A DNA stretch of 64,000 nt, taken from contig NC_134034.1 in assembly GCF_964204645.1 (NCBI RefSeq), positions 7,576,962 to 7,640,961 of the forward strand, in the 5' to 3' direction. The stretch's first letter is position 1. The number at the start of each line of letters is the position of its first letter. The notes beneath the pieces are model-generated. The model did no database searches, was not told where the DNA came from, and saw only the letters and a list, made by a program, of their open reading frames with translations. The translations under genes and the position numbers were made by a program. Positions 2,045-57,439 of the stretch are shown in pieces. Source of the stretch: Tubulanus polymorphus (taxonomy: Eukaryota; Animalia; Nemertea).

Positions 2045-2196
2045 AGTAATAGGGGTTTAGTTGTTCTAGATCAATGGTCGAAAGGTCGAGCTCATAAAAA
2101 ATGAAAAATAAATTCTTGCACGCTCGAATTTATTTTTCATTTTTTACTCACTCAACCTTTCAACCTTTAATCTAGAACACGTAAACCCCTATTACT
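2045..2196. repeat. Terminal palindrome/hairpin of copy A (152 bp)
   Basis: agtaataggggttta...taaacccctattact, arms complementary around loop ttgcacgctc. Confidence 0.9.
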
Positions 2197-2255
2197 CTTA
2201 AAATATTAATCTAATAACTTCTAAAATAAATGTTAATAAAAAATATGTTATTAAA

Positions 2256-2597
2256 ATGGAGAGTAAACAAGTACACAGTGAATTCTTAAATAGAATAAAA
2301 GTTAATACAAATGCTAAATCAGTAGATTATAAGTTTAAGAAGTTAAAAGAATTAACAATCCATAAGAAATATCTAGTTACAAATATTGTTACAGTTACTA
2401 ACAAATATGGAGATAAATTAGTTATACACTTAGAATATGAAGGATTAAAAGGAAATACATATAAATTCAGAACATATTTACCAGATAGATTTCATAGATT
2501 ATCAAGTGAAGATTAAGAAGAATTATGTTCTGGAGATTTCTATTTCATATACAAAGGTAAGAATGAAAACGGGCACCATGAAATAGATTTCGAATAA
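2256..2597 (+). pseudogene. Small conserved Polinton protein (homolog of 40020), premature stop at 2516
   Basis: Near-identical to the 40020-40437 product; homology continues past the stop. Confidence 0.75.
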
Positions 2598-2704
2598 GAT
2601 ATGTAAATTCATATTATAAAATTTATATTGTAACCTCAGTAATAATAAATAACCTTTTTAAGTATTTAGGTATGTATCTAATGCGTATCTTATACATTAA
2701 TACT

Positions 2705-3316
2705 TATTTTATAAATTTATATTCATATGGAAATTGTAATCTCAGTAATAATTTTGAACCTTTACTTTTCTTTAATTTATTCATATATTCATCATGTAAT
2801 TCAGTAGGTATAATTTGATTTACTTCCAATGATTGTTGCATAGATTTTCTATCTTTGTTATAAAATAAAACTAGAAATCTTATATTCTCCCTAAAGGCTT
2901 TAACAATTGAATTATATTTTTGATAATAAAACCCATGTTGTTATCCCAAAATGTCTCCCAGTGAAAGCTAGATAACATAATTCACTTTTTCTAATTTTTG
3001 AATCATGTAAATTTGCGCAATCATCTATAATGAATAATGTATTTAATCCTTTATAAATATCAATTGCTATTTCAATACAATTATCTAAATTTTCTTTTAC
3101 TGTTTTAGGATCTAATATAATAAACTTTTTTATCTTAACTATATCTCTATTATATGTTTTATTCATTTCATAAGTAGGACAAAATAATATTATATTATCA
3201 AAATGATTCTTATAAATAGTTTCTAACAAGTCTAATATGAAATGCGTTTTACCACAGTTGGTTACTCCAGTAACTAACATATTATGCGGTTCAAATATAA
3301 ATAAATCTTTATTCAT
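2705..3316 (-). pseudogene. A32/FtsK-like genome packaging ATPase, frameshifted
   Basis: Walker A GVTNCGKT, Walker B LFIIDD, GRH motif. Confidence 0.88.
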
Positions 3317-4430
3317 TTATTCTTTTAATTTTACTAGATAAAATCCATTCATTAAATTTATCATCATACCCTTTATATTTCTCCAAAGAATACTTTTTTC
3401 CTTTAAGAGTTTTTGTTTTCAATACTTTTTCTATTTTGTATTCTATTTCATCTGGATTTGGTACAAGTGATAATTCTTGTTCGTAGAAATAACCTAATAT
3501 TTCTTCATCTTGTAAATCTTCCAATTTATAAACAAATGGTTTAGTTAATATTATCTTTTTAATCTTGAATATTTCTTCAGTAAAATTTGGAGTATAACCT
3601 TTATAAAATGTTTTTCTATATTTAGATATTTTTACGTGTTGTCCTATTTTAAATTTTGGTTCAACAAAATCATGTGTAACAAACGCACCATATAAATTAT
3701 TCCAAACTATTTCTGAATTATCTTCTTTTCTAGCTTGTATAGGTTTCATATTTATAGAACTATGTTTAGAATTATTATAACCTTTCACTAAATCATCTAA
3801 TATATCGATATATTTATATGTTTCATTAGCAGTAAAATATTTCCACATTCTAGTTTTCAATGTTTTATTAAACGTTTCTATAATAGATGCTTTTTTATCT
3901 GATTGTGTTGAAAAATATTCTACATCGTTATCAGATAATAGTTTTTTAAGATGTTTGTTATAAAATTCTTTACCTTCATCAAATTGTATCTTATCTGGAA
4001 TAGCTTCTTTAAATATTGATTTAAAAACATTTGTTACTTCTATTCCAGTTTTATTTTTGATTGGAATTGACGCGTATCTACTGAATATGTCTATAACATT
4101 TGATATCCAGAAATATCCTTTGTTCTATTCTTCGAAGTTCTTCATATCAATTAATATCAGCTATATTCATATATTCAATATATTCATATCAGCTTGCCAT
4201 TGTTGATCGATATATGAAACCATTACTTTTCTTGTTAAATAGGTTTTATCCATTTTCTTGTGGATTTGATATGTTGGTTGATTTTGTAACCATAATCTTA
4301 ATTCACTATATTTTATATCACCATTTTCGTTATCAGATTTAATTTTATCCCATAATTCTGTAACGCTAGAATATGATACTTCACTTTCTGGGTTGTAATA
4401 TAACTCTCTTAAATATTGTTCTTTTTTCAT
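3309..4430 (-). pseudogene. Retroviral-type (rve) integrase with C-terminal chromodomain, disrupted
   Basis: WQAD, IQFDEGKEF and IIERFNKT motifs; YKIEKVLK...KYKGYDDKFNEWI chromo-like end; homolog of 48893-49970. Confidence 0.88.
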
Positions 4431-4920
4431 CTTATTTTAATCCATTAATAATAATTTAGATTTAGTTTCAATGACTTTATTATTTGACTTATTTTCTGGT
4501 ATAATAGGTTTATTATCATTGGAATCATCTTTATCATCAGATTTGAATTTTTATATTACACCAGAGAATATAATAACTGTTACTAATCCAATTGTAATAT
4601 ATAAGTAATTATTACTTCCAGCATTATAAGAATTAGATGGATTATTATTTGAATCAATATCAGATAATTTCTGTGATTCATTTATATCAGTTAATTTCTT
4701 TTTCTTAGCTTTTTTTTAATTCTGCAGATCTTTTACCTAATTCTCTTGCCCATATAATTTGTTTCTCGGATCTAGGCTTCTTCTTAACGTCACTGTGTGG
4801 GTGCCGTACGGAAACAACATCACTCATTTATTTTAATTAATTTTTGTTCTGATTCATTTTCTGTTTCACCGTTTGGGTGTCGTACGGCGCCATCTGTTTC
4901 GTTCTTACCCGATTTATATT

Positions 4921-5427
4921 CTATAGGTTTTTACTCGAAAATGTTATGACTCCAGTAGAAATTAATGTCATAACCGATCCTAATTGGAATGAAGCATATC
5001 CGACCCATTTTTGTAATTCAGTCATAACTAAGTAGTCAACTTTCAAATCACTATATAATTTATTTTCATCATCAATTGACATTAACCGGTTACATGATTT
5101 TGAATAACATTTTATAATACCATCTGAAATAGAATCATTTATTCGGGCCAATCTTGCCTCTTCATAAATCTTAAAATATTTTATTACTTTATCTGGTTTC
5201 ATAGAGTCTAATTCTTGAAAAGTAATGATCTTAGTTAAAAACTCTTTACATTTAGCACTAGCAATTAATAATTCTAGATGGTGCTTACAATATAAGTAGT
5301 ATTCATAATCAATATTACAATTAATATTATTTTCAATTTTGGTTGGAATATCCTTATTATCACTAATGCCCAAATCATCTAATGTTTTTTCAATGTCGGT
5401 ATAATTCTTACTCGATTTCTTTGACAT
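4921..5427 (-). CDS. Conserved Polinton hypothetical protein (homolog of 50336-50944), C-terminus frameshifted
   Basis: ORF nearly identical to its copy C homolog. Confidence 0.7.
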   Translation of the reverse strand: MSKKSSKNYTDIEKTLDDLGISDNKDIPTKIENNINCNIDYEYYLYCKHHLELLIASAKCKEFLTKIITFQELDSMKPDKVIKYFKIYEEARLARINDSISDGIIKCYSKSCNRLMSIDDENKLYSDLKVDYLVMTELQKWVGYASFQLGSVMTLISTGVITFSSKNL

Positions 5428-5754
5428 TTATATTATAGAACAAAGCGGAAAAAAATATTATTAAATGATACTAGCTAGTTAAAGTTAAAGAATTCTAGTA
5501 TTGACTACTGATACTAGCTATTTGAATTTAAAGAATTTCTATTTGAATCTATTCAAAATATAAAGTATTCTCCTTTTGAAAAGAAAATATTAAAAATATA
5601 ATAGAATTCACTGGTTAGTTGAAGTAATTGTTTTTTAAATACTTTTTATTTAAATTAGGAGTTAGATTATCTCACTACTATTGTTTATCTATTAGGAGAA
5701 GTTATTATAACTGTCCAGATAAGTCATTTCGAATCCTCGATAATAAATCCTCAA

Positions 5755-6246
5755 ACTGAAAATAAATTCAAAGAAACGACTGGTGGAATTACTATTTCAT
5801 AAACACATATATTTTATTCTACAATCATTATCGATTTCCACATTCCTCAACGGGCCTCTGAGGCCCGGCAAGTTATGCGTGGAATGCAGGAATCAATAAA
5901 GTATAATACAACATCTGTCACTGTAACCATTAACAACAGCTGAATGACGCAATTGAAATTGCGGCAAACGTAATGCATTGAAAGCCTATACAGTATGGCT
6001 AAACTGCTACAGTCTCATGAGTTGAAATATAGGTGCTTTTAACAACAAGCAACAGATGTTCTTTTATGATTAATCCTTTTCAACTGAAATAGCACGTTCG
6101 ATCAATATTCAAATGAGGTACACGCCATTCAACTGAATATAACTGCCGCAGATGTTTTTTGTAAACAACCTACAGCTAACCTAATACAATTGCATATAGG
6201 CAGTTTGACATAGATCGAGAGTAACCGGTTTTCTAAGCGCTTAAGC
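5755..6246. mobile_element. ~490-bp insertion in the 3' end of the HNH gene
   Basis: Flanks are contiguous in copy C (~51270-51285); tcaa on both sides; internal GC hairpin cgggcctctgaggcccg. Confidence 0.6.
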
Positions 6247-6894
6247 TTCAACGTATTTTTCATTATGTGTTGAATTCCATAATTCGACGAATGTCTTTGC
6301 TTTATCCAGTTGATCTAAATATAACTGTAAATCTAGTTTATTAGATTTAATTATCTTTTCCTTCTTTTCTAAAGGTCTTAAATTTTTCCAATTCCAAATT
6401 AGTTTTTTATCGTATTCATCACTCATGTCAAATTTAGAAATCGGCAACACGTGATCAATATGAAAGTATTCACCATAGTTTTTTTCATTCATTTCATCAT
6501 CAAACTGATATATTATCCATCATTTTAAGAATTCAACTGAACAACCCAACAAATTAGATAATGATTCTGAATGCGTTTTTTTGTTGAATAATTGTGTTAA
6601 TCTAGATCTTAAGCATTGTTTCAATCTAAAATTAAGATCTGTTTTATATCTTTCTCTCATATATTCTGTCATATAATCATTATAATGTTCTCTATTATCT
6701 GCTCGATATTGCTTGGTATATAGTTTAATACAAGTTTTGCAGCAATATTGAAAACCATCTTTGCTAATCTTACGCTTACTAAATTCTGTTATAGCTAATT
6801 TATCTAATTCACATTTAGAACATTTCTTGTAGTATATATTTATGACACCAGTGTTATTTGTAATATTGATAGTTTGTGGTTGTTCTGGTTCCAT
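6241..6894 (-). pseudogene. HNH endonuclease, internal stop
   Basis: CSKC...CKTC and HIDHVLP...NWKNLRPL motifs. Confidence 0.8.
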
Positions 6895-6947
6895 TTATTA
6901 TACATATTTTTACTAAATTATATACTCATATTTTTACTAAAATTTGA

Positions 6948-9900
6948 TTAACATGTTATAATCCTGTTCATTATTTCCTTTTCTTTTGTTTCTTCTCTTT
7001 TAAATCTTAAGTATTCATCTAAATTGCAACCATACGCGACTGTATGAATTCCGTCATCTAAAATATATCTTTTATCATCAAATGGGTTTGGACTTATCTT
7101 TTCAATTTCTTCAATAAACATCTCGTGGTACTCAGATCTTAAACATCGTATCTTATGTTTTCTAACTTCTTCATTGAATATACAATTGATGTAATCTTTG
7201 AAATGAATATTCTTTTCAACAACGCTTCTGGTAATTCCTTTTAATTTCTTTGATTCATGAGTTCTAGTTTTATAACTATACATTTTAGATACTATATATT
7301 TTCTAATACCAATGAATTCAATCATTTCTTCACCACCTAATTCATCTTTAAACTTCCCGGGAACTTTTTTATTATCATTGCTAAACAATTCATGATCTTT
7401 AGGATAGTAAGCGAAATCAAAATGATGTTTTAATGTTTTTAAATCATCTGTTATATTATTAGTTTTTATCTGTAATATGTAAGAATCAAAATATAAGATT
7501 TCTATATGTGTCAAAATATAAGATTTCTATATGTTTTCCAAAATGAGGTTGTAATATGTTATAATAGAATTCATACATTAATAACTTTGATAATTCTAAA
7601 ACTGTAGCTCCAACATTAATTGGTTTATTAAATTTCATTGATGTTCTTCTCATTTTAACAGCGGCTAAATTTTCATCAAATATTTTGTTACCCATAAATT
7701 TAGGATATGTTTGTAAATGTCTAATTCTTTTACCATTACTAACTAACTCAATATCATTTCTATTTCTAATATTTTCACAAGTCTTACCATAGAATGCATT
7801 ATTCATTAACTTTTTAAATCTTTTTCGAAATCAGTTGTAGCTTTAGTTCTCTGTTTTGTGTTAAAATCTATATATTTTTCTAACCATTTAGATTGACTGA
7901 ATGAAATATATCTATGTACTTTTTTTAGGATCATACCTTGTTTTAGATATAACTTTAACATTCTATAATGTACTACATAATTATATTTATCTTCTTGAGT
8001 TACCATTAACTTTTCTGTATGAATATGATTTTCGGGTTTAATTCTTTTTAGTAATTTGATAATTCTTCATGTGTAACAGTTTTATGTTCTGGACAGTATG
8101 CTAGATTTCTAGATTTAAATTTTTTATCATCAGGATATTCCAAGTCTACAACAAAGAAGTAACCAGTATCTGAATCATCTTCAATATCTAGAATTCTATT
8201 CTTCCAATCAAATTTATCATTATTTTCATGTTGTAAAACTTCACTTATTTCAAATACTCCATCAGGTTGTGGTTCCATCATTGCCCATCCATAAAGATTA
8301 TTTGCATCTATATATAATAACTTATATCCAGGATTGTCATTTACATTGAAATATCTATCGCCTAATACACCTGAAACTCCTCCTCTTACAGATTTTTCAA
8401 ATAATAATAATTGATCTATATTTGTCAACAAATCCATTTTTATATCTGTAAATTTTCAACCACAATCCCAAGTTAATCCTGGTGAAGAATAACAATGGCA
8501 AGGATCCATATTAAAATATTTTAGATTTACATCTCTAAACCTTTCAAATATATCCGATAATAATAATACATCTGATTTTAAATATAAATCTACTAAGTGT
8601 CCATGATTTGTTATTTTATAATGATTCCAAATATTCAATGTTCTATTATAGACTTCATATTTAACATATTCGTTTTTTAATTCATCATAGAATTGTTCTA
8701 TAATAATTCAGTTATATTGAAATCATTATGTGATTTATAAAATGAATATGGAATTGCGCCTTTATATCTCATTAATTGAAAATCATCATTATTTGGGTAG
8801 TGTTGTTTTAATATTTTTAATTCATCATCAACTAATGATTTTGATAAATTATCTAATGAACTACCTAAAAATCTATATGAATCTATAAATCTTAGGCACC
8901 CAAATTGGAACAAAGTTAATTTTCTTAGCTTGTAAGTTACAATTCTCATGCGCTGCGCATCTAAACTTTCCATTTAAATGATCATGGTCTCTTACTTTTT
9001 TATCTTTTAGATTAAATATCTTTTCACAATAATGACATTTATCTGCAAACTCAAATGCTTCTTTATCTTCTTCTGTCATTATAATTTCTATATTTGCATC
9101 TAATAGTTTACTAAATTTTATTTCATACTCAATCAATAAGTCACAAAAATGATTGATAACATTTTCATTTCTATAATGATAATATTCACTTTTAATTAGT
9201 TCTGGATAATCAGATTTTATATATAACCAAAAGCTGCAGCTGATTGATGAATCTTTTTAATAGTATTTGTTATTAGGGGATCTGAATAATCAATTATATC
9301 ATTTTCATCAGAATTTAATTTCTTTCTTTTATGATATATTTCTTTTCTATCTTCGATCAGTTAATTCTTTATTTATTGATTCAAAATCTCCATATATTAC
9401 AAATGGTACTTTATTCTTGTAATCATATTTTTTGAATTCTAATACTTTATCCTTTTCATTTGGTAAAACTATTTTACAATAATCATGATTTTCACATAAT
9501 TGTTTATGATTTAATAATGCACTTTCGGTTCTGAATTTAGTTATACATTCTCTACATAGATATATTTTATTATCAAAATCATTTTCTGATTTGAAAAATA
9601 AATCAATACGTTTTATCCACATATAATGATTCTCATAATATAGTATATCTATAACATCATTTGATTCATAATCTTTTGCTAAGTATAAAGGTTCTAATGT
9701 ATAATGTTTAATATTATTACCTTTTGTTTTTGGCAATTTGACTAAATAAAACACATTTATCTTTATATTATTTTATTTGATTTAGTTAACTTATTATATT
9801 TTGTGTTATAAACATGTAAAGTCATAAATATTATTTCATCAAATATTAAACCTGATCCTTCAAAATATTTCTTTTCTATTTTACTTTTTATTTCATTAAA

Positions 9901-10542
9901 ACATTTATCTAATTTATCATCTATATGTTGTTTAGATATAATATGTTGTGAATGGGAATTTATATTATATATTGGTTTATCTTCAGATTTTATAAACTTT
10001 ACTTTAGAAGATATGCTAATTTTAGGGTATTCAACATCTGTAATTATTTTTATAATATTTTTTATATTTTCTAAATGTTTTTTATTTTCTTCTAATGTTT
10101 TTCCTTTATGAAATTTAAACTCAATAGCTGCTGGACCAATATCACTTTTAAATGCTTCGGTTATCTCTATTTCCTTTTTATTATCTAATGAATTAATATA
10201 TTTTCTTGCATCTTCCATGTATGGCCTTTTATTGTTTAATTTATTTTTTATTCTTTTAATTGTCTTCTGTTTCTTATCATTATCTTTATCAAAATAATCC
10301 TCACCTAAAATATCATTATTCTTATTTCTAATTTGACTTTTAGATTTTAAATGTTCTTTATAATATCTTTTGTATGTTTATTTTTCATTCTTTAATTCAT
10401 CTAATTTAGTTTCTAATATATCATCTTTATATTTTAGCTTTAATTTATTTTCTAAGTGAGATTTAGTTTTATTGTGCCTTGCTTTTTGAGATTTATGTAT
10501 ATTTATTTTACATGTTGGACAGTAGTATTTATTTGCTTCCAT
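6948..10542 (-). pseudogene. Protein-primed family B DNA polymerase, fragmented (copy A), intein-free allele
   Basis: ORF fragments with YIDANNLYG, NNAFYGKT, YFD(T)DS and EndoVII-like RDHDHLNG..AHENCN. Confidence 0.9.
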
Positions 10543-10787
10543 TTTAATACTAAATTTTTTATTAAAATTTATTTTCAAATAATACATATTAGATACCTCA
10601 ATACTTAAAACCCCATATCTCTAAAATATATATTACTTATTTTAATTTTTCAACTAAGTTTGAAATAATAAAGGTTAGATACGTATTAGATATGTATTAG
10701 ATATGTATAAGATACGCATGAGATACATAAATACTTAAAACCCCTTTTTTATTAACTATGTTTTTATACAATTTTCAACTGATATTA

Positions 10788-11582
10788 TTATTTGAGTGTT
10801 AGATAATTATCATTACTATCTGAATCACTTTCATCATCATACCCTAACAATGTATTCAAATTCTCTACCGTATCATCATCAATAGTTGTTTTATTGACAT
10901 ACTTTTTCATCCAAACTGTATCTTTATTTTCTACTTTATGTTTCATAGAATCTTCATTATCAATATGCTTTCCAGTAACTATATTTTCATTGTCATCTTT
11001 CATAGTGTTTGACTCCAACATTTCATTTACAAGGTTTGATCCTAATATTTTCTTAGCAGCAGATAAATCTAATTTATCATTACTAGGTTCCTTAGATGAA
11101 AATTCACCTAATAAATCTTTATATAAATCTTTACCATTTACTTTTTTATTTGAAACAAACTTAGTTATATATATAAATGGGAGTTCTATAAATTCTCTTA
11201 TACCTACACGCTCTATTACATTAGTAATATGTGAAGCTGTATTCATATGATTATTCCAATTTGATTGACTGTTTGAAAATTCACCTTTACAGTAGCCAAA
11301 ATAATTTCTATTTTCACTAATATTTAATATTATTTCATTATTTGATGTAGAAGGTAAAACATTATTTGATGTAGGAGGTTAAACATTATTATCAATTTCA
11401 TTACTTAAATTATCAGCAACTTCACTTTTATTATTATCGATTTCTATTAGTTTAGTTTTATAATTTTTGAAAATAGGATCAAATATCAAAGCTATATTAC
11501 AAGGTATTTCATAATATAAGCCATCATTATTTTCATGTTTATCGATGTATGGAATATGTTTATATACTTTACCTGCATCCAT
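10788..11582 (-). pseudogene. Polinton hypothetical protein(s) downstream of MCP
   Basis: ORFs 11379-11582 (TAAATG start) and 10788-11246; no recognisable motif. Confidence 0.45.
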
Positions 11583-11614
11583 TTATTATATAAATTTTTA
11601 TTAAAATTAAAATT

Positions 11615-11890
11615 CTAATACATAACACTATTTATTTGAGAATTTACAATATTTGATTGTGCGTCAGATATAATATAAATGTGCATTTTGAAATTTTTGA
11701 TTCCCTTTTTCTTTTTCATGAATAATTGTATTCCATCTTTAGTGTTCTGTAATTTTTTTCCAGAACCATGTAATAAGTTATCCTCTGTTGTTCTAAAATC
11801 TAACCATAATGCATATTTATTACCGGTATAATAATCAATTTGATTAATATTACAATTTTCAGATGATTTTACTTTTTGATTCATAAAATG
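11615..11890 (-). pseudogene. Major capsid protein C-terminal fragment
   Basis: Near-identical to the last ~90 aa of 45495-46742. Confidence 0.85.
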
Positions 11891-12713: not shown

Positions 12714-12756
12714 TTATATAATAAAAAAATTAATAATGTATTAATTCTTGTAATAA

Positions 12757-14676: not shown

Positions 14677-14867
14677 TACTAGGTTAAGCGTTCGCTGTGG
14701 GGGAAATGAGATCGTTCGCCGTGTCACTTAAAGTGTTTATCGAGTTTTACGCGACCTTAAGGCTTTAGTATGGTGGCTGATAAGGGCCATGCGTAAAAAA
14801 ACACTAATATGCAAATGAGGGCGACATTATGACATAAACGACAAAACTAAAATAATGCGACAAAACA

Positions 14868-15245: not shown

Positions 15246-15401
15246 TCATATTTATGTCGTTTTTATGAGTCGTCATATTTATGTCGATATATCGCGATAT
15301 ATCGTGTCAAGTCGCCATGAATATGTCGACATATCGTGACGTTTTGACGACATATTTCGTTTTCACGACCATTTTCCTCGCGACAACTCATTCGTCATAT
15401 T

Positions 15402-17268: not shown

Positions 17269-17269
17269 C

Positions 17270-17288: not shown

Positions 17289-17289
17289 G

Positions 17290-21961: not shown

Positions 21962-22023
21962 GATATTTGCCACGCACCCAATAGTTGTTGCGAAGTTAAT
22001 TAAGGATAATAACAGAAATAATT

Positions 22024-34413: not shown

Positions 34414-34785
34414 AGTAATAGGGGTTTAGTTGTTCTAGATCAAAGGTCGAACGGTCGAGAAATTTTCCAAATGTGAAAATAACAATAATTTCAACTTGAA
34501 TTAGTCGCGCACACTCCTAATTCAAGTAGAAATTATTATTATTTCACATTTGGAAAATTTCTCAACCATTCAACCTTTAACCTAGAACAACAAAACCCCT
34601 ATTACTCTTAAAATAATCATATACATGAATAACATGTAAATTGACGGATTATTCAATATAAAAGTGTGAGCTCTTATAGAATAGATAGATAGATATATTT
34701 TAAACCATATTTCAATATTTATATTTGTATGAGTTAGATTTTTAAACATTAAAAGTGTTAGTAAAGTGTGATTGAAATAATTCAT
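34414..34785. repeat. Left TIR with 193-bp terminal hairpin (34414-34606)
   Basis: Self-complementary arms; inverted match to 53244-53542. Confidence 0.92.
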
Positions 34786-34838
34786 ATTTAAATCATTGAA
34801 CTTCTAAAATCAATTTAAAAAAAAAATTTAGTATTAAA

Positions 34839-37800
34839 ATGGAAGCAAGTACTACTGTTCACCATGTAATATCAATATAGATAAATCCCAAAAATCAAGA
34901 CACAATAAAACTAAAACACATTTAGAGAATAAATTGAAATTAGAATATGAAGATGATATATTAGAAACTAAATTAGATGAATTAAAGAATGAAAAAGAAA
35001 CATACAAATGTGATACATGTAATCAATCATTCAGTGATAAAAGATATTATAAAGAACATTTAAAATCTAAAAGTCATATTAGAAATAAGGATAATGATAT
35101 TTTAGGTGAAGATTATTTTGATAAAGATAATGATAAGAAACAGAAGACAATTAAAAGTATAAACAAGAAAATTAATTTTAGAAAATTATTTGACGCCTGG
35201 GAAAAAAATGTAGAATTTCTGGGCTAAGCTAATGTGGAATTGCAAATTTGAAATCGAAGTTTTAAGAAATTTGGGGAATGATGAGATTTGGCGATTTGGT
35301 AGATGATACAGGTCTTCGACTCTAGTAGTGGTTTAAATTTTTTTATTGAAAATTCTCAATAATTGATCGCGAACTTGCGACCGACTTCATTTACTTATGC
35401 CTCTAAGCTGGTCTGCAACTTCATAGCCTCCATGGATGAAGAAAGAGCTCCTCTGATGTCTGCTTCATCATGACTTCGATCATATCGTGTGGCCTAGCCA
35501 GCCGGCCCGGTCCCCGGGCCCGGGCCACGGGTTTGGCTGTCACTCGATATCCTAGAGTCTTGAGTCTGGGTGGGTTGAAGTAGACATTGTCATTTAAAAT
35601 AACATGCTTATGTTGTTCTGTATGAATTACCCGTGTGTCATGTATGTTGTATTAATTTATTTTAAAATTTGTATTTATTGAATTTGGGAATTTTATCCCG
35701 GAATTTCAATGTAATAAGGATCAATAAAGAATTGAATTGAATTGTCACCTAATACACATGCCATCAGAGGACACGGAGCCGTATAAGACAGCTATGCTAT
35801 TATAAATTGCTAATCTCACGAAACTTGCATACTCCTAATATCAAACATATTTTCACAAACGATTGAATATTGAAATTATATGTTTACACATTTTCATATT
35901 GACCGCTTGTAGCCGCTGATGAAATTCACGCCGGCCCTACACACATCGTAGATAGCTTCGTCATTCCACCGGCATGCCCACGTCAGGGTCTGACTTTTAT
36001 ATCAGACTTCCGCATCGTGTATACATCCGCCATTTAACCGAATAATCCGATTTACTTATCATTTCTATTTATGCCTGCCGCTTCTGATACAATCATACAT
36101 CCTTTACTATTACAATACGTCTTCTAATGATATTCAATGCAATATAACATTTCGACGTTCAAATATAGGTCATTATATAATCACAGGAAGCCATTCTACA
36201 TCTATGTCAATAATATTTTGCCAGATAGCTTGTTTGTGTACACATAAACCTGTGACGTTTTGCACATCGATTTACGGCTGTCGTTTGTAAAATGACGCTG
36301 AATGGTAAGCATTGTTTAGGTTTCATAATGGTAACGTTTTATAAGGCGTCAAAAAATAAATTTAACAATAAAAGACCATACATGGAAGATGTAAGAAAAT
36401 ATAGTAATTTATTGGATAATAAAAAAGATATAGAGATAACCGAAGCATTTAAAAGTGATATTGGCCCAGCAGCTATCGAGTTTAAATTTCATAAAGGAAA
36501 AACGTTAGAAGAAAATAAAAAACATTTAGAAAATATGAAAGAAATAATGAAAATAATAACTGATGTTGAATATCCTAAAATAAGTATTTCATCAAAATTT
36601 AAATTCATAAAATCTGAAGATAAACCAATATATAATATAAATTCTCATTCACAACATATTATATCTAAACAACATATAGATGATAAATTAGATAAATGTT
36701 ATAATGAAGTAAAAACTAAAATAGAAGAGAAATATTTTGAAGGATCTGGTTTAATATTTGATGAAATAATATTTATGACTTTACATGTTTATAACACAAA
36801 ATATAATAAGTTAACTAAATCAAAACCCATAGATGAAAATAATGTATCATATTATAAAGAACCAGATATTGAAGCATCGAGTTATATTAAACTACCATTT
36901 AAAACTAATGCTGTTATAAATGTACAAAATGAAGATGATAAATGTTTTCTATGGGCTATAATTAGTTGCTTACATCCTGCAACTGATAATATTTGTAGAT
37001 TAACTCATTATAAACCATTTGAAAATAATTATAAGATAGATAAGTATCCTGTTAGAATTAAAAATATCCAAAAAATAGAAAGAGATAATAATATAAAGAT
37101 AAATGTATTTTATTTAATCAAATTACCAAATACAAAAGGTAACAATATAAAACATTATACATTAGACCCTTTATATCTATCAAAAGATTATGATTCAAAT
37201 GGTGTTATAGATATATTATATTATGAGAATCATTATATGTGGATTAAAAGAATTGATTCATTTTTTAAATCAGAAAATTATTTTGATAATAAAATATATC
37301 TATGTAGAAAATGTTTACATAAATTCAGAACTGAAAGTGCATTATTAAATCATAAACAATTATGTGAAAATCATGATTATTGTAAATTAGTTTTACCAAA
37401 TGAAAAGGATAAAATATTAGAATTCAAAAAATATGATTACAAAAATAAAGTACCATTTGTAATATATGGAGATTTCGAATCATTAAATAAAGAATTAACT
37501 GATCAAGATAGAAAAGAAATATATTATAAAAGAAAGAAATTAAATTCTAATGAAAATGATTTTTCAGATGAACCACCAATAACAAATACTATTAAAAAGA
37601 TTCATCAATCAGCTGCAGCTTTCGGGTTATATATTAAATCTGATTATCCAGAACTAATTAAAAGTGAATATTATCATTACAGAAATGAAAATGTTATCAA
37701 TCATTTTTGTGACTTATTTATTGAATATGAAATAAGATTTAGTAAATTATTGAATAAAAATATAGAAATTATAATGACAGAAGAAGATAAAGAAGAATTT

Positions 37801-39939
37801 GCGTTTGCAGATAAAAAAGTAAGAGACCATGATCATTTGAACGGAAAGTACTTACAAGCTAAGAAAATTAATTTTGTACCAGTTATATTTCATAATCTAT
37901 CAGGATATGATGCACATTTATTTATCAAACAGTTATGTCATAAAATAGAAGAAATCAATAATGAAATAGACATATTAAATTCAAATAGATCAAAAGATAA
38001 AATACCAACTTATAAATTTAGAATGTTAGCTAAAACATCTGAGAATTATATATCATTCCAATTTGGTTGCCTAAGATTTATAGATTCATATAGATTTTTA
38101 AATAGTTCATTAGATAACTTATCAAAATCATTAGTTGATGATGAATTAAAAATATTAAAGCAACACTACCCAAATATTGATGATTTTCAATTAATGAGAT
38201 ATAAAGGCGCAATTCCATATTCATTTTATAAATCACATAATGATTTTAACATAACTGAATTATTAAAAGAACAATTCTATGATGAATTAAAAAATGAATA
38301 TGTTAAAGATGAAGTATATAATAGAACATTGAATATTTGGAATCATTTTAGAATGAAAAATCATGGGCAATTAGTAGATTTATATCTAAAATCAGATGTA
38401 TTATTATTAACCGATATATTCGAAAGGTTTAGAGATGTAAACCTAAAATATTTCAATATTGATCCTTGTCATTGTTATTCATCACCAGGTTTAACATGGG
38501 ATTGTGGATTAAAATTTACAGATATAAAAATGGATTTGTTAACAAATATAGATCAATTATTATTATTTGAAAAATCTATAAGAGGAGGTGTTTCAGGTGT
38601 ATTAGGTGATAGATATTTCAATGTAAATGATAACCCCGGATATAAGTTATTATACATAGATGCAAATAATTTGTATGGTTGGGCAATGATGGAACCACAA
38701 CCTTATGGAGTATTTGAAATTACTGAAGTTTTACAGTATGAAAATAATGATAAATTTGATTGGAAGAAAAGAATTCTAGATATTGCAGATGATTCAGAGA
38801 CTGGTTACTTTTTTGTTGTAGATTTAGAATATCCTGAACATATTAAATCTAAATCTAGAAATCTAGCATACTGTCCAGAACATAAAACTGTAACTCATGA
38901 AGAATTATCAAATTATCAAAAAAGAATTAAACCCGAAAATCATATTCATACAGAAAAGTTAATGGTAACTCAAGAAGATAAATATAATTATGTAGTACAT
39001 TATAGAATGTTAAAGTTTTATCTAAAACAAGGAATGATCCTAAAAGAAGTACATAGTTATATTTCATTCAGTCAATCTAAGTGGTTAGAAAAATATATAG
39101 ATTTTAACACCAAACAGAGAACTGAAGCTAAAACTGATTTCGAGAAAGATTTCTTCAAGTTAATGAATAATGCATTCTATGGTAAGACTTGTGAAAATAT
39201 TAGAAATAGAAATGATATTGAGTTAGTTAGTAATGGTAAAAGGATAAGGCATTTACAATCATATCCTAAGTTTTTAGGTAACAGAATATTTGATGAAAAT
39301 TTAGCTGCAGTTAAAATGAGAAGAAAATCTATGAAATTTAATAAACCAATTTATGTTGGTGCTTCAGTTTTAGAATTATCAAAATTACTAATGTATGAAT
39401 TCTATTATAATGTATTACAACCACTTTTTGGAGAAAAACATATAGAAATCTTATATTTTGATACTGACAGTTACATATTAAAGATAAAAACTAATAACAT
39501 AACTGATGATTTAAAAACATTAAAACATCAGTTTGATTTTAGTAACTATCCTAAAGATCATGAATTGTTTAGCAATGATAATAAAAAAGTTCCAGGGAAG
39601 TTTAAGGATGAATTAGGTGGTGAAGAAATGATTGAATTCATTGGTATTAGATCTAAAATGTATTCATATAAAACTAAAGAACATGAAGCTAAAAAGTTAA
39701 AAGGAATAACCAAAAGTGTAGTAGAAAAGAATATTCATTTCAAAGATTACATCAATTGTATATTCAATGAAGAAGTTAGAAAACATAAGATGAAATGTTT
39801 AAGATCTGAAGATCATGAAATGTTTATTGAAGAAATTGAAAAGATTAGTCTAAACCCATTTGATGATAAAAGATATATTTTAGATGATGGAATTCATACA
39901 GTTGCTTATGGTAATTTAGATGAATACTTAAAATTTTAA
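34839..39939 (+). pseudogene. pPolB (C2H2 fingers, OTU-like DDKCFLW..HY region, exonuclease, EndoVII-like insert, polymerase), interrupted by an insertion at ~35170-36351
   Basis: Open from 36352 to 39939 with YGDFES, FHNLSGYDAH, YIDANNLYG, NNAFYGKT and YFDTDS; N-terminus matches the copy A start. Confidence 0.95.
35191..36351. mobile_element. Unclassified ~1.16-kb insertion in PolB
   Basis: Flanks contiguous in copy A; short inverted ends tgacgcct/aggcgtca; contains a LINE-tail-like aataaagaattgaattgaattg; no clear TSD. Confidence 0.65.
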
Positions 39940-45494: not shown

Positions 45495-46742
45495 ATGAGT
45501 GGGAGTTATATCAATCCTTCTAAGAATCATAGAATATCTAATGCTATTAAAGCAGAAAGATCACATCATATAATTACTCATTACCCTTCTAATATTAATC
45601 CTGATGAAACTTTATATGTTAGAATTCCGAGATTAACACAAAATACTTTTTTTGTTCCAAATAGTATTTATTTATCAGCCGATATAAAAGTAACCGGTAA
45701 TAATAATAATTATGTTGTTGATAATGTTGGAAGATATTTGATTAAAAAATTAACAATAAAGATTGGTCCGGAAACAGTTTTCTCATTAGATGATTATAAT
45801 TTATTTATGCATTATAAAGATTTATGGTTAACTAAAGAAAATAGAAATAATATGATATTTCAAGGCATCCAATCAGAAAACCAAAATAAATTAAGATCAG
45901 AAGCACATAATGCAATATTAACCAATGCTATAGATAAATTGATAAAAAGTATTTATGGAAGCAAATATAAAATTCCATTAGACTTTGAATTGATAAATAA
46001 TAATGCGCCTTTATATAAATACGCAATTCAAGAAGATGTTATATTTGAGATAACATTTGCTCCTGTTAATGAAATTGTAAAATCTAGCGTTAATAAAGAT
46101 ATGGGTTATAAATTATCAAATATATGTTTAGAATATGATACAGTAACTGATGAAAATATTTCAAGTATAATTCAAACTCAATACAATCAAGGATTTTCAT
46201 TATTATATGATTATATTGATAAATTTAAAACTGTAACTATTAATGCAAATGATGAAATAATTAATGAGAATATTAACTTCCCAAGAAGATCTATTAAAGG
46301 TATATTAATATTTTTTACCATTGCAACATATACTAATGGTGCAATAAATGTTGATAATTATTATAATCCTGAAATAACAAAAGTAGAAATAACTATCGAA
46401 GGAATAGCAAATAAAATATTTTGTCAAGGAATGAGAATGATTGATCAATGGCCAGAAATTAGAAAACATTTTATTTATGAAAAAGTGAAATCATCTGAAA
46501 ATTGTAATATTAATCAAATTGATTATTATACCGGTAATAAATATGCATTATGGTTAGATTTTAGAACAACAGAGGATAATTCATTACATGGTTCTGGAAA
46601 AAAACTACAGAACACTAAAGATGGAATACAATTATTCATGACAAAGAATAAAGGAATCAAAAATTTTAAAATGCACATTTATATTATATCTGACGCACAA
46701 TTAAATATTGTAAATCCTCAATTGAATAGTGTTATGTATTAA
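45495..46742 (+). CDS. Major capsid protein (double jelly-roll)
   Basis: Intact 415-aa beta-rich ORF, NVGRYLIKKLTIKIG motif, Polinton context. Confidence 0.78.
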   Translation: MSGSYINPSKNHRISNAIKAERSHHIITHYPSNINPDETLYVRIPRLTQNTFFVPNSIYLSADIKVTGNNNNYVVDNVGRYLIKKLTIKIGPETVFSLDDYNLFMHYKDLWLTKENRNNMIFQGIQSENQNKLRSEAHNAILTNAIDKLIKSIYGSKYKIPLDFELINNNAPLYKYAIQEDVIFEITFAPVNEIVKSSVNKDMGYKLSNICLEYDTVTDENISSIIQTQYNQGFSLLYDYIDKFKTVTINANDEIINENINFPRRSIKGILIFFTIATYTNGAINVDNYYNPEITKVEITIEGIANKIFCQGMRMIDQWPEIRKHFIYEKVKSSENCNINQIDYYTGNKYALWLDFRTTEDNSLHGSGKKLQNTKDGIQLFMTKNKGIKNFKMHIYIISDAQLNIVNPQLNSVMY

Positions 46743-48357: not shown

Positions 48358-48900
48358 TTATTTATTCATATATTCATCATGTAATTCAGTAGGTATAATT
48401 TGATTTTCTTCCAATGATTGTTGCATAGATTTTTTATCTTTGTTATAAAATAAAACAAGAAATCTTATATTCTCCCTAAAGTCTTTAACAATTGAATTAT
48501 ATTTTTGATTTAAAACCCATGTTGTTATCCCAAAATGTCTCCCAGAGAAAGCTAAATAACATAACTCACTTTCTCTCACTTTTGAATCATGTAAATTTGC
48601 GCAATCATCTATAATGAATAATGTATTTGATCCTTTATAAATATCAATTGCTATTTTAATACAATTATCTAAATTTTCTTTTACTGTTTTAGGATCTAAT
48701 ATAATAAACTTTTTTATCTTAACTATATCTCTGTTATATGTTTTATTCATTTCATAAGTAGGACAAAATAATATTATATTATCAAAATGATTCTTATAAA
48801 TAGTTTCTAACAAATCTAATATGAAATGTGTTTTACCACAGTTTGTTACCCCAGTAACTAACATATTATGCGGTTCAAATATAAATAAATCTTTAGTCAT
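48358..48900 (-). CDS. A32/FtsK-like packaging ATPase (premature stop near C-terminus)
   Basis: GVTNCGKT, LFIIDD, GRH, VLNQ motifs. Confidence 0.9.
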   Translation of the reverse strand: MTKDLFIFEPHNMLVTGVTNCGKTHFILDLLETIYKNHFDNIILFCPTYEMNKTYNRDIVKIKKFIILDPKTVKENLDNCIKIAIDIYKGSNTLFIIDDCANLHDSKVRESELCYLAFSGRHFGITTWVLNQKYNSIVKDFRENIRFLVLFYNKDKKSMQQSLEENQIIPTELHDEYMNK

Positions 48901-49970
48901 TTATTCTTGTAATTTTACTAGATAAAATCCATTCATTAAATTTATCATCATATCCTTTATATTTCACCAAAGAATACTTTTTCCTTTAAGAGTTTTTGTT
49001 TTCAATACTTTTTCTATGTTGTATTCTATTTCATCTGGATTTGGTACAAGTGATAATTCTTGTTCATAGAAATAACCTAATATTTCTTCATCTTTTAGAT
49101 CTTCTAATTTATAAACAAATGGTTTAGTTAATATTATCTTTTTAATCTTGAATATTTCTTCTGTAAAATTTGGGGTATAACCTTTATAAAATGTTTTTCG
49201 ATATTTAGATATTCTAACGTGTTGTCCAATTTTAAATTTAGGTTCTCCGAAATCATGTGTAACAAATGCTCCATATAAATTATTCCAAACAATTTCTGAA
49301 TTATCTTCTTTTCTAGCTTGTATAGGTTTCATATTTATAGAACTATGTTTAGAATTATTATAACTAAATCATCTAACACATCGATGTATTTATATGTTTC
49401 ATTAGCAGTAAAATATTTCCACATTCTAGTTTTCAATGTTTTATTAAATCTTTCTATAATAGATGCTTTTTTATCTGAGTGTGTTGAAAAATAATCTACA
49501 TCGTTATCAGATAATAGTTTTTTAAAATGTTTGTTATAAAATTCTTTACCTTCATCAAATTGTATCTTATCTGGAATAGCTTCTTTAAATATTGATTTAA
49601 AAGCATTTGTTACTTCTATAACAGTTTTATTTTTGATTGGAATTGACCATGCGTATCTACTGAATATGTCTATAACATTTAATATCCAGAAATATCCTTT
49701 GTTGTGTTCTTCTAAGTTCTTCATGTCAATTAAATCTGCTTGCCATTGTTGATCGATATATGAAACCATAACTTTTCTTATTAAATAAGTTTTATCCATT
49801 TTCTTGTGGATTTGATATGTTGGTTGATTTTGTAACCATGATTTCAATTCACTATATTTTATATTTTCATTATCAGATTTAATTTTATCCCATAATTCTG
49901 AAACGTTAGAATATGATACTTCACTTTCTGGGTTATAATATAACTCTCTTAAATATTGTTCTTTTTTCAT
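48893..49970 (-). pseudogene. rve integrase with chromodomain, frameshifted
   Basis: WQADL, IQFDEGKEF and IIERFNKT catalytic D-D-E. Confidence 0.92.
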
Positions 49971-52515: not shown

Positions 52516-53243
52516 ATTCACCAAACAGATTTACACAATACATTATACAAGTTATTCAGTTGTTTCTTCCAATACATCATTTGATTTCTATAAATACAAT
52601 TTATAATTACAAACATTTTTTCAATTGCTGGTAAATATTTAACTACATCAACAAATGTTAAACTTAATCATTGGAGTCTCAATGTTTTTGAAATTCTTAT
52701 ATATAGTTTCTTCTTCGATCTTTTGGTGATTCTTGTGTTTCTTGTGCCAATTTCTATTGGTTCGATATCCATTGCTGTTGATTCCTCAGTCAGAAAGAGT
52801 ATCTTGAGTTTCTCTATCACTTCTTGATGCGTATGGCGTTTTATTAATCTAAAAGATATTAGTGGCAACTCTAGCCATCTAAAAGATATACTAAATACAC
52901 TTAAATATATCTAAAGGTTTCATATTTAATGGCCCCAATGACTACAAAAAACAGTACTTACATTTAGATTTAGAATTGTAAACTATAAACTCCTAATTGC
53001 GTTTCTAGAGAGAATATCCTAAGCGTTATGTTACAGCGTCTATTCAGTTCCGGTGCAATTTCGAGCCACGTCATCTGGTTCCGGTTCTAGAATGTTCTAC
53101 GCGTTTGTAGTATTATGACTCATATGTCTCGGCGTCATAGTAACAGCTGTAACAGCTGTGAATTTATAGATTTATTCCATAGCTCTTTACATGGAATGTA
53201 TATAGTCTCAAATAGAATCATGTTCTAGTATAAACAGCTATGT

Positions 53244-53542
53244 ATTATTTCAATCACACTTTTAATGTTTAAAAATCTAACTCATACAAATATAAATATT
53301 GAAATAATGTTGTAAATATATCTATATATCTATTCTATAAGAGCTAACACTTTTATATTGAATAATCTGTCAATTAAAATGTTATTCATTTATATTTTAT
53401 TCATGTATATGAATATTTTAAGAGTAATAGGGGTTTAGTTGTTCTAGGTTAAAGGTTGAACGGTTGAGAAATTTTCCAAATGTGAAATAATAATAATTTC
53501 TACTTGAATTAGGAGTGTGCGCGACTAATTCAAGTAGAAATT
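53244..53542. repeat. Right TIR of copy C, outer hairpin arm mostly lost
   Basis: Reverse complement of ~34490-34785. Confidence 0.9.
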
Positions 53543-53854: not shown

Positions 53855-53980
53855 ATTGTAGACATTGTCGACGAGTAGAATCGGTCGACAATCGGGGTTG
53901 TAGACATTGTCGACGAGTAGAATCGGTCGACAATCGGGGTTGTAGACACTGTCGACGAGTAGAATCGGTCGACAATCGGG
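53855..53980. repeat. 42-bp minisatellite x3 with internal hairpin
   Basis: ttgtagacattgtcgacgagtagaatcggtcgacaatcgggg. Confidence 0.88.
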
Positions 53981-55280
53981 AACCGAACCACTCACTTCAT
54001 TAAAGAAACCCCACCACGACGGAACTATATTGACCTATTCTGGAGTTGAACCAATAGGTGAATGAAGGACTACAAAATGATTTTGTGTAATTTTCAGAAT
54101 ATTTACAAAGAATATTCACAGAATATTGTCAAAAAATGTTATTTTTAGTTCGTATTTCTCCGTAGAAACCGATTGGAAGACAGGATTCGAATCCCACAAA
54201 AAGCACAGTCCCTTAGCAATAGGTCGACATTTTTTTAGAATAACAAGCGCGCCGGTTTCACAGCATCACTAAGGGTCGAGTCCCGGAGAATAAGGCGTGC
54301 GCGCGGTCTGCGTGTTACAAAATGACCGTCTGACTGAAGTACTGACCCAGCTAGCACACAACGTTCATACAACACTCAGAAACGTTCGTGAAACGTTTTC
54401 TGTTGGTGTTCTAAACGTTGTCATCCAAGAGCCTGCAGCAAATTAATAATTACGTCAGATATCATCAATATAGTGATCCGCAGCAAGATTTCGTAGTAGT
54501 TAAAAATGTTTGTAATGTTGATTTCCTGTATGCGTTGGTGGTTACACAGGCACTTGAATATGGGCTTTGATAATGGATAAATATTTAATGATTCACCAGC
54601 GATACGTTGTTCCTACTTCGATAATCCGCCATGTTTTATAATATTTTACCCATGATTAACTATACTATACAGAAAGGCTGGAAACGATCCTATTTTTTGT
54701 AAAATGTTAATACTAGCACTCTAAAGTTTCTCTTGTTGTATACGTCTGTTGGTAATTCGCAAAGAGTAGTTGTTCTCTTAACGATGATAAGCAAGGAGTG
54801 AGTAAATCATTCCGCGTCATGACAGGAGGGTTGGAAGGAAAAAGTTAGTTTAGCAAATCAGTTTTGAAAATAATTTTAGATCAGCGAATCATTAAGGCTA
54901 AATTCTACATGACCAAAACAGTCATGACAGTTAGGTTGCTGCTCCTTGCCAAAAGTCGAGTGGGAGAGTCGGTATTCTAAGAATGTCGATTCTTTCTATA
55001 AAAGGGACCCGCAGTCTTGGGAGAGCAGACACTCAAAAGACACTCGATAGACACTCGTTGGAGATCGATTGGGAGGTTATATTTCAAGACCTTGTTTATA
55101 GAGTTTTGTTACCAACAGGAGTGTACGCTAGTAATCATTTTAAGAGCTTGGATCTGGATTGTGTTCTAACTGGAAAAAGCTTCGGCTACTTATCAAGGTA
55201 AATCAAATTCGTTTTACTATTATTATATTCAGTCAAATTTCCGGTATTCTAGTTTTACATGGGGTTGTGAGGTGTAACAT

Positions 55281-55295
55281 TGGTGCCGAAACCCA
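55281..55295 (+). promoter_or_regulatory. Primer binding site, tRNA-Phe-like
   Basis: tggtgccgaaaccc after the LTR end. Confidence 0.75.
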
Positions 55296-55399
55296 GTCTG
55301 TTGATTAACATTGATGCCGAAATCCGGTCTGTTAATTATTATTAGTGCCGAAACTTGTACTTTTAATCTATTGTGCTGGAACCTTTTATATTGATTATT

Positions 55400-57439
55400 A
55401 GTAATAGGGAATATGTTGTTTCAGATCAAAGGTCGAACGGTCGAGTTCATTAAAAACAAAACATGAAAAGTAATTTAAAACTATAATATATTTTCATAAC
55501 CGTGTGCATTTTATATTAAAACTAAATATTTATTCTAAGATATCAATAATTTTAAAAGCATATTGTATTGTAAATAAATCAATTGGTCGCTCCACTTCGC
55601 TACCGCTCCGCTCCGCGACCAATTGATTTATTTACAATACACACATTCATATAATCAAATATATTCAAATAATAATAATATTCAACTGAAATACACACGG
55701 TTATGAAAATATATTATAGTTTTAAATTACTTTTAATATTTGTTATTAATGAACTCGACCATTCAACCTTTAACCTGAAACAACATATTCCCTATTACTC
55801 TTAAAATATTCATATATATGAATAAAATATAAATGAATAACATATAAATTGATAGATTATTCAATATAAAAGTGTGAGCAAAGTGTTAGTAAAAAAGTAA
55901 CGAGTAATTAACGAGCTCTTATAGAATAGATATATAGATATATTTTAAACATTATTTCAATATTTATATTTGTATGAGTTAGATTTTTAAACATTAAAAG
56001 TGTTAGTAAAGTGTGATTGAAATAATTCATATATAAATCATTGAATATTTATATGCGTTAAATTCTTATTTTCAATATAAAAAGTAACGAGTAATTAACG
56101 AGTGAAATAATTCATATTTAAAACAGTGAATATTTATATTTATATGCGTTAAATTCTTATTTTTATGTTTAAAAGTAACGAGTAATTAACGAGTTGATGA
56201 AAATATCAATTTTAATAACAAAATTACTTATAAATATGAATGAACAGATACTACATTTCAAAGATATCGATTTAAATGAATTAGAAAAATATTTTACAAT
56301 TAAAAATTTCATTCCTATTAAAGATTTGATTAAAACTGCGCGTCTTCGTTTTCAAGTGAAAAATATTACTGAATTAGTGTTTAAAAATCATTATCTAATG
56401 ATAGAGTTATCGAATGATAAAGATAAAATCTTATTCAATACAATAATTCCAAAATTCACAACATTTGATGGAATAGATAAACATTTAATAATTACAGATG
56501 AAATGCAATCACTTTTTAATAATGAAAATTCACATAAAACATTATTTTTACACTTACGTTATTGCCCATTCAGAGAATGCTATGTTATGTTTTTCAGATT
56601 ACAAGAAAAGAGATTTATCCCTGACATTCCAAATGAAAAATCATATAAAGATGTTGGAATTCAATGTAATTTAGATAATGAAATCGTTGCACCTAAATAT
56701 AATCCTAATGAAAGCGTTTTATTTAATTGTGGAAAATATTATACTCGAAGCAATAAATCACACCATCTTAAATCAAAATATCATAACACATATCAAAGAT
56801 AAAAACTAATAACATAACTGATGATTTAAAAACATTAAAACATCATTTTGATTTCAGTAACTATCCTGAAAAAATATAAAATAAACTATCCATAAAATAT
56901 ATCTATATATCTATTCTATAAGAGCTCGTTAATTACTCGTTACTTTTTTACTAACACTTTGCTCACACTTTTATATTGAATAATCTATCAATTTATATGT
57001 TATTCATTTATATTTTATTCATATATATGAATATTTTAAGAGTAATAGGGAATATGTTGTTTCAGGTTAAAGGTTGAATGGTCGAGTTCATTAATAACAA
57101 ATATTAAAAGTAATTTAAAACTATAATATATTTTCATAACCGTGTGTATTTCAGTTGAATAATAGAATAATTATTATTATTAAAATATATTTGATTATAT
57201 GAATTTGTGTATTGTAAATAAATCAATTGGTCGCGGAGCGGAGCGGTAGCGAAGTGGAGCGACCAATTGATTTAATACAATATGCTTTTAAAATTATTGA
57301 TATCTTAGAATAAATATGTAGTTTTAATATAAAATGCACACGGTTATGAAAATATATTATAGTTTTAAATTACTTTTAATGTTTTGTTTTTAATGAACTC
57401 GTTCGACCTTTGATCTGAAACAACATATTCCCTATTACT
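55400..57439. mobile_element. Complete 2040-bp non-autonomous Polinton derivative (copy D)
   Basis: AGT...ACT termini, ~550-bp TIRs each with a ~400-bp hairpin, 6-bp TSD ATTATT, ~68-bp PolB remnant at ~56800-56867. Confidence 0.93.
56194..56802 (+). CDS. Hypothetical protein with degenerate C-terminal zinc finger (likely ATG at 56236)
   Basis: CGKYYTRSNKSHHLKSKYH; only ORF inside copy D. Confidence 0.55.
   Translation: MMKISILITKLLINMNEQILHFKDIDLNELEKYFTIKNFIPIKDLIKTARLRFQVKNITELVFKNHYLMIELSNDKDKILFNTIIPKFTTFDGIDKHLIITDEMQSLFNNENSHKTLFLHLRYCPFRECYVMFFRLQEKRFIPDIPNEKSYKDVGIQCNLDNEIVAPKYNPNESVLFNCGKYYTRSNKSHHLKSKYHNTYQR

Follow-up and report, generated by a model that had tools for sequence, protein, structure and literature searches.

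The replication of Polintons is modeled in silico as a panhandle with protein priming, a scheme reproduced in a preprint on Halocafeteria seosinensis (10.64898/2026.07.28.741278). Among described elements, the beta adintoviruses, as portrayed in the portions of two papers available to us (PMC8502044; 10.1101/2023.08.22.554363), code for a family B DNA polymerase of the protein-primed type (pPolB) with an OTU domain and an HNH/EndoVII-like insert, an rve integrase, an A32 ATPase and a capsid-like open reading frame (ORF), and have terminal inverted repeats (TIRs) starting AGT and a 6-bp target site duplication (TSD). We analyzed a 64-kb stretch of contig NC_134034.1 of the nemertean Tubulanus polymorphus, here called the window, which holds at least five related Polinton copies (A, B, C, D and E). 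These share the features listed for beta adintoviruses but differ in that the outer 104-400 bp of the TIR, relatives included, form a self-complementary palindrome with strand-biased mismatches. The word "hairpin" is absent from both papers, as is "palindrom" from the second. The hairpin ends are real and conserved beyond the window genome, and we propose, with a probability of roughly one half, that they are fold-back 3' telomeres on single-stranded intermediates of a protein-primed genome, as in Streptomyces.

Palindromes within TIRs, beside the TSD, also occur in virophages of H. seosinensis and in polinton-like virus (PLV) subtype 4 (10.64898/2026.07.28.741278). There the example is of 52 nt, the host is a protist and the replication genes are preferentially not pPolB; the palindromes described here are 2-8 times longer and accompany a pPolB that keeps a predicted terminal-protein domain. 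The passages of the preprint on these palindromes say nothing of strand asymmetry or orientation. In these passages, terminal palindromes and a hairpin-priming model are already described for one PLV subtype and for virophages of protists, for the most part lacking pPolB, and the elements studied here extend the palindromes to pPolB-encoding Polintons. Parvovirus and poxvirus ends (PMC8242256; PMC8956199, in part) likewise consist of terminal hairpins, 100-400 nt long, that are imperfect and conserve their mismatches, but they go with HUH-nickase rolling-hairpin replication or with closed ends and flip/flop. Here the ORFs scanned yielded neither an HUH nickase nor an SF3 helicase, and flop isomers were not observed. 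In Streptomyces the 3' strand of a terminal-protein-capped linear DNA folds back with sheared G:A pairs and serves as a template for end repair, according to the relevant sections of PMC5449611. This telomere is a working analogue only, as its Tpg and Tap proteins are unrelated, replication combines an internal origin with end patching, and there are several short palindromes instead of one long hairpin. A literature search returned no description of whole-terminus, strand-asymmetric, fixed-orientation hairpins for pPolB Polintons; subscription papers, Repbase and supplements were outside its reach.

Four complete terminal palindromes of 152, 193, 400 and 399 bp, all imperfect and all at the ends of Polinton copies, lie exactly where a first-pass annotation of the letters alone had placed them, each starting AGTAATAGGG and ending CCCTATTACT (Table 1). 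That annotation overlooked a fifth, truncated palindrome at the right end of copy B, which has inner-type letters at stem positions 26, 28, 35 and 43. Its view that every terminus is a hairpin holds for the ends still present, but within the window copy A yielded no right end, and copies C and E yielded none at all. On the strand that carries the 3' end, 15 of the 19 basal-stem mismatches in the four complete palindromes are G.T and none is A.C. By terminus, the G.T fraction is 3/6 in A, 5/6 in B, 4/4 at the left of D and 3/3 at the right of D (over the 38 columns before a 4-nt gap), so that the description of almost all mismatches as G.T on this strand suits B and D but only half of those in A. 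Wobbles at positions 28 and 35 do recur in all four, as had been claimed of the set as a whole, but the others vary: 26 is shared by B and D only, 39 by the left ends of B and D only, and 43 by A and B only. The loops, previously described as unrelated, have a common C-rich apex of the CTCGC/CTCC type on the 5'-end strand. Six basal columns are changed in both arms between the subfamilies in the window, and the folded 3' end is perfectly paired over its basal 19 or 25 bp (15-25 matches).

The two strands of these palindromes do not fold equally well. For the left palindrome of copy B, whose bottom strand combines five basal G.T wobbles with a tandem G.A apex, separate folding gave -77.5 kcal/mol (z = -21.4) for the 3'-end strand and -65.9 kcal/mol (z = -19.1) for the 5'-end strand, a difference of 11.6 kcal/mol, with no shuffle as good (0/200). 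The same strand is the more stable in 12 of 12 independent termini of the window and its relatives, by 0.4-11.6 kcal/mol. Its mismatches contain G in 88 cases (40 G.T, 35 G.A and 13 G.G) and C in 14, counts that take in imperfectly aligned apex columns, and the G class leads in 11 of the 12 termini (sign test p 0.006), although the termini fall into about three related groups and the counts and p-values overstate independence. Left out were the right ends of copy D and of relative G001:C67, both duplicates, and locus L019, whose role as an end is doubtful. Tandem GA/AG pairs are known to be stable sheared pairs. Of 14 termini, 8 have this motif near the apex of the 3'-end strand, and none has it on the 5'-end strand. 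Along the 5'-end strand the C:G ratio is 428:332 in the palindromes and reverses to 470:603 in the next 300 nt. Ten non-terminal palindromes of the same loci are roughly balanced, the most uneven standing at 14:25. As a general rule, non-canonical pairs favor folding of the 3'-end strand, always in one orientation, and the G.T wobbles are the window family's version of this wider asymmetry.

Distant relatives have their own versions of this asymmetry. We identified whole-terminus palindromes of 104-159 bp in nine of them (PolB about 35-41% identical where measured). Seven start ACACACAT (G001:C67 at both ends, G003:C243, G001:C9, G001:C50, G002:C265, G002:C154 and L129) and two start AGTAG (L041 and L127). 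The polymerase or its N-terminal motif lies beside the end in seven of the nine; G001:C9 and G002:C265 are linked to the group by terminal sequence alone. G001:C67 is a complete 19.4-kb element with eight genes in common with copy B, at 24-41% identity. In the seven ACAC-type termini, 11 of 29 basal pairs are changed on both sides and 96% of cells are paired, a result reached by 0 of 500 shuffles and compared with at most three pairs in slid controls. G.T wobbles are mostly replaced in the relatives by tandem G.A pairs at the apex and by a bulge, a single additional inner-arm base at position 20 that eight of the nine have and the window family lacks. The proposal that the 3'-end strand is the one built to fold thus gains support from the strand bias, the both-side changes, the fixed orientation (see below) and the lack of a CpG-decay signature.

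The bulge and the wobbles invite two other explanations. At the ends of IS200/IS605 elements and at integron attC sites, extrahelical bases give strand choice, and the extra base at position 20 resembles them; the hairpin might be a strand-selective integrase signal for excision from or integration of single-stranded DNA. We consider this quite unlikely, as the three subfamilies in the window have no bulge and retroviral-type integrases act on duplex ends. Alternatively, the palindromes could be by-products of template switching, their G.T bias arising from deaminated cytosines on a strand that lies exposed. A change of C to T in the 3'-end strand would yield G.T, three of the five basal wobbles lie at outer-arm CpG, and the distribution of hairpins is patchy. 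Yet this origin does not account for the tandem G.A apices or the bulge, nor for identical wobbles recurring between separate subfamilies and between the two ends; it is strained by the covariation, and other palindromes at the same loci are roughly balanced. Decay of methylated host CpG is ruled out as the source of the wobbles because the observed/expected CpG ratio of nearby host flanks is 1.0-1.1. An origin as by-products is therefore most improbable.

All 15 assembled termini (five in the window and ten of relatives) have a single orientation, with no flop isomer among them, and the left and right ends of copy D are oriented identically, as first annotated. Genome-wide counts for the window family come from reads only, about 12% of one genomic run under the same species label, mapped on copy D. 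Depth is about 2,900 over the outer arm versus about 11 on the flank, and such termini are therefore abundant; at 55400, 433 reads come in from flanks unlike one another (agreement 0.36). The best 40 of 122 read differences, of which the smallest away from the edges involves about 220 reads, include neither stem position 35 (55434) nor the position paired with it (55765), and the best 6 of 195 loose-end clusters include none at the end of the inner arm. Within those 40 differences the reads fit the pattern expected without flip/flop, but this is only suggestive. At positions 26 and 28, 23-25% of reads differ, in parallel with another abundant subfamily of different basal sequence. Those two wobbles are therefore not family-wide, and some of the differing reads may be flop isomers.

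This evidence bears on the suggestion that the ends are opened, covalently closed hairpin telomeres of the poxvirus or N15 type, resolved by an EndoVII-like activity. The combination of mismatched hairpins with a junction-resolvase-like domain would suit such a cycle; Pfam Endonuclease_7 is matched in close homologs of the polymerase (E 7e-6 in P0005). The flip/flop that it predicts is seen in none of the assembled termini, with no sign at position 35 among the best 40 read differences, and the elements retain a terminal-protein domain. We regard closed telomeres as extremely unlikely.

The polymerase itself points to protein priming. The 1215-aa protein of copy B has all exonuclease and polymerase motifs, and spacers of 166 aa (A-B) and 99 aa (B-C) would leave room for TPR1 and TPR2. 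It has 4415 homologs; among the 120 matches listed, a soft coral contributes the one eukaryotic homolog that has a name (36% identity), and there was no Pfam match to the polymerase family. An alignment-based model of residues 45-345 (mean pLDDT 83.6) has a mixed alpha/beta domain (topology in Table 1) and, after it, an OTU-like domain. The structures that match the model best are the polymerase N-termini of adintoviruses, MELD-viruses, bidnavirus-like elements and mavirus. In the PRD1-like terminal-protein fold, as described in the part of Krupovic et al. available to us (10.1101/2024.03.18.585575), the linking Ser or Tyr lies in the alpha2-beta4 loop with Gly or Pro nearby. In that loop the alignment has Ser152 in 87 of 90 rows and Gly153 in 82, and among the OTU protease residues Cys is present in 90 and His in 89 of 90 rows, the Asp being conserved too. 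The polymerase is thus predicted to keep a PRD1-like terminal-protein domain with Ser152 as the linking residue. The Ser-Gly motif was identified in seven hairpin-bearing relatives and in two without hairpins; neither L019 nor the sequence upstream of the L105 polymerase yielded it. The model also weakly matches Y-family polymerase chains, including an isolated little-finger domain, over 110-130 columns (E about 0.002-0.004); this probably reflects the terminal-protein-like domain.

The motif of the EndoVII-like insert is present in the broken copies A (8903-9241) and C (31650-32101), and the insert was found in 126 loci, non-hairpin ones included. The idea that this domain resolves the termini is weakened, since it also occurs in elements whose candidate termini lack a fold-back and the Cys pairs are gone in copy B. 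HNH or VSR inserts in pPolB2 polymerases are mentioned in the available text of Jeong 2023 (10.1101/2023.08.22.554363), and such polymerase inserts are interpreted as homing endonucleases derived from intein invasions in that of Krupovic et al. In copy B, two in-frame deletions remove exactly the two Cys-containing halves and leave the polymerase otherwise open. The 5' part of the same gene is split by about 1.07 kb of higher-GC sequence (35220-36290), which separates a zinc-finger N-terminus from the rest.

The best-placed alternative, although unlikely, is that the folded 3' end primes its own extension. The duplex would then be nicked at the junction of arm and interior, by the integrase or the EndoVII-like insert, or be resolved asymmetrically with one orientation kept, possibly with protein priming alongside. 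A perfectly paired 3' end followed by template fits this scheme, and immediately inside the arm A, B, D and L041 have similar bases. Hairpin priming is proposed in the H. seosinensis preprint, some bocaparvovirus ends occur in one form only (PMC8242256), and pPolB2 enzymes with HNH or VSR inserts exist, all as reported in the sections available of these sources and of Jeong 2023. Self-priming sits poorly with the conserved terminal-protein domain and protease of hairpin-bearing elements and with a nuclease insert that occurs without hairpins and is broken in copy B. Moreover, the junction sequence is not conserved among ACAC-type termini, and simple hairpin transfer would yield flip/flop. The first-pass proposal of fold-back instead of protein priming finds no support, given a terminal-protein fold with a near-invariant Ser-Gly, then an OTU protease. 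A rather improbable compromise would be a hybrid cycle of protein priming and strand-specific fold-back self-priming, in which the fused nuclease nicks at the wobbles or bulge and resets the end without flip/flop. EndoVII-like and VSR nucleases act on mismatches or branched DNA, Vsr specifically on G.T. We know of no element for which such a hybrid cycle has been described.

We therefore prefer protein priming with a fold-back 3' telomere to both self-priming and opened hairpin telomeres, and infer its functional steps as follows. By strand-displacement synthesis the polymerase would set free a single strand of full length, the 3' end of which would snap back onto its own inner arm. The folded hairpin may shield the 3' end, may offer the next protein-primed start a local duplex origin, with no need for a 19-kb panhandle, and could serve as a template to re-copy nibbled 3' bases. 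In Streptomyces, fold-back telomeres allow the 3' end to be re-copied or repaired (PMC5449611, in part). Owing to the bulge and the G.T, G.A and G.G pairs, only the 3'-end strand would fold well, and the outer arm would be distinguishable from the inner one. As both arms would be copied linearly, orientation would stay fixed. The arms change in sequence but stay complementary, while the differences fixed between them persist unswapped, and the simplest reading is selection for 3'-strand fold-back together with linear, protein-primed copying. The hairpin ends are a short, defined substrate that makes the Polinton model testable with oligonucleotides and one purified enzyme. The prediction is built in: of the two strands one folds and its partner does so less well, the orientation does not change, and a named serine should act as the primer. 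If true, virus-like elements have converged on the Streptomyces telomere solution.

Several observations weigh against the fold-back telomere, beyond the relatedness of the termini counted above. A paired 3'-OH in front of template is also an ideal primer, and both-side changes can also arise when one arm is re-copied from the other. The case for homology to terminal proteins is built on topology, on a motif and on matches to models that are themselves predicted, and a fold search of the N-terminal model against the PDB returned no match at E 0.001 or better. C-class mismatches outnumber G-class ones in L129, and L019, of uncertain status, leans to the opposite strand. Hairpin elements are scattered among non-hairpin ones in the polymerase tree, a midpoint-rooted FastTree with no clade test and with L083 and L127 left out. 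At eight pPolB2 candidate termini (L105, L038, L083, L033, L101, L014, L022 and L010), of which L105 is a verified TIR pair and seven are inferred from an AGT-type start, no fold-back lies within 1.5 kb, the best inverted 19-mer matching at 10-15 of 19 positions; hairpins are therefore not needed by all pPolB2 elements. Three of these (L038, L083 and L033) carry the GGTTCTG-like motif of the hairpin families, and two share virion-module genes with them.

The last point also bears on a very unlikely possibility, that the mismatched hairpin is a packaging or maturation signal and not an origin. Mismatches in the vaccinia hairpin are needed for maturation and not for DNA synthesis, according to PMC8956199, and the present elements encode an A32-type ATPase. 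Against this, relatives with the same virion genes have no hairpin, and a duplex genome with both arms would form one only on single strands or as cruciforms.

The relatives were drawn from polymerase searches that gave 31, 54 and 80 loci, many of them apparent eukaryotic contigs in bacterial bins. The 54 loci L033-L086, from GTDB bacterial or archaeal bins, encode a eukaryotic-type polymerase, apparently through host contamination; bin G002 has 163 matches. A palindrome scan of the 165 loci (1.36 Mb) matched seven, and none in 0.65 Mb of shuffled sequence: termini in L037, L041 and L129, an uncertain case in L019, and internal palindromes in L043, L063 and L105. L079 and L127 scored under the scan threshold and came to light by visual inspection. 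The majority of the 165 loci lack a terminus, and the scan therefore gives no frequency of hairpins. No clear termini were seen in 20 stretches of eight long G002 contigs, which hold nested, degraded copies. A scan of IMG/VR with a single protein had no match; of the terminal DNA patterns, one matched L032 by chance and two further ones matched nothing. The 176-bp palindrome of L019 (4661-4836) starts ACTACT and lies about 830 bp upstream of a pPolB2, with the opposite strand bias, and is doubtful as an end. Strong sub-terminal hairpins are present in elements without terminal fold-back, in L101 (134-260, 24-bp stem) and L105 (250-415, 42-bp stem).

Table 1. Features of the Polinton copies in the window (positions count from the first letter of the 64-kb stretch).
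Feature	Positions	Strand	Details
Left terminal palindrome, copy A, 152 bp	2045..2196	.	3'-end strand 7.1 kcal/mol more stable
Left terminal palindrome, copy B, 193 bp	34414..34606	.	five basal G.T wobbles and a tandem G.A apex, bottom strand
Inner left TIR, copy B	34607..34786	+	matches 53239-53422 inverted
Family B DNA polymerase, copy B, beta/pPolB2 type	36292..39939	+	exonuclease and polymerase motifs
Terminal-protein-like domain, copy B polymerase	36424..36792	+	beta0-beta1-alpha1-beta2-beta3-alpha2-loop-beta4; predicted linking Ser152 at 36745-36747
OTU-like protease domain, copy B polymerase	36904..37266	+	Asp215, Cys218, His314
EndoVII/HNH-like insert, copy B	37774..37881	+	both Cys pairs gone
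Major capsid protein-like ORF	45495..46742	+	Capsid_N E 0.007, weak, below cut-off; 35% to L172 relative
A32-type packaging ATPase	48358..48900	-	Pox_A32 E 1e-11
Retroviral-type integrase	49335..49970	-	rve E 5e-10
Truncated right terminal palindrome, copy B	53423..53542	-	inner arm, loop and ~18 bp of outer arm
Left TSD, copy D (ATTATT)	55394..55399	+	
Left terminal palindrome, copy D, 400 bp	55400..55799	.	
Inner TIR, copy D	55800..55971	+	matches 56872-57040 inverted
201-aa ORF, copy D	56197..56802	+	without Pfam match
Right terminal palindrome, copy D, 399 bp	57041..57439	.	orientation same as left
Right TSD, copy D	57440..57445	+	

Among the copies, B (34414 to about 53542) carries the gene for the 1215-aa family B polymerase along with a capsid-like ORF and genes for an A32 ATPase and an rve integrase. 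Copies A (from 2045) and C (about 27700-33500) are degraded and E (61340-61840) is a fragment, whereas D (55400-57439) is a non-autonomous element of 2040 bp with a 6-bp TSD. The window elements thus present the Polinton/Maverick features of a protein-primed-type PolB, an integrase, a packaging ATPase, a capsid-like ORF, TIRs (B and D) and a TSD (D), and their ends agree with the AG/AGT-type end motifs reported for Polintons in a portion of PMC8097293. Judged by its domain content, the element belongs to the beta/pPolB2 kind of Polintons. No Pfam match to an adenain-like protease or a minor capsid protein was found among the ORFs scanned; the copies are degraded, and profile-profile search was not part of the scan.

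Copies A (2045-12760) and B are about 90% identical, and the order of their genes relative to the left terminus differs. Between copies A and C, a 31-bp tandem array (14806-15271) adjoins a 300-bp host palindrome (15268-15891) in which the mismatch classes are balanced. A Ty3/Gypsy-type long terminal repeat (LTR) retrotransposon occupies 16453-27452, and its 816-bp LTRs are 99.8% identical, indicating a recent insertion. It encodes a 1279-aa pol protein with a chromodomain and, downstream, an 835-aa ORF without a Pfam match that is possibly env-like.

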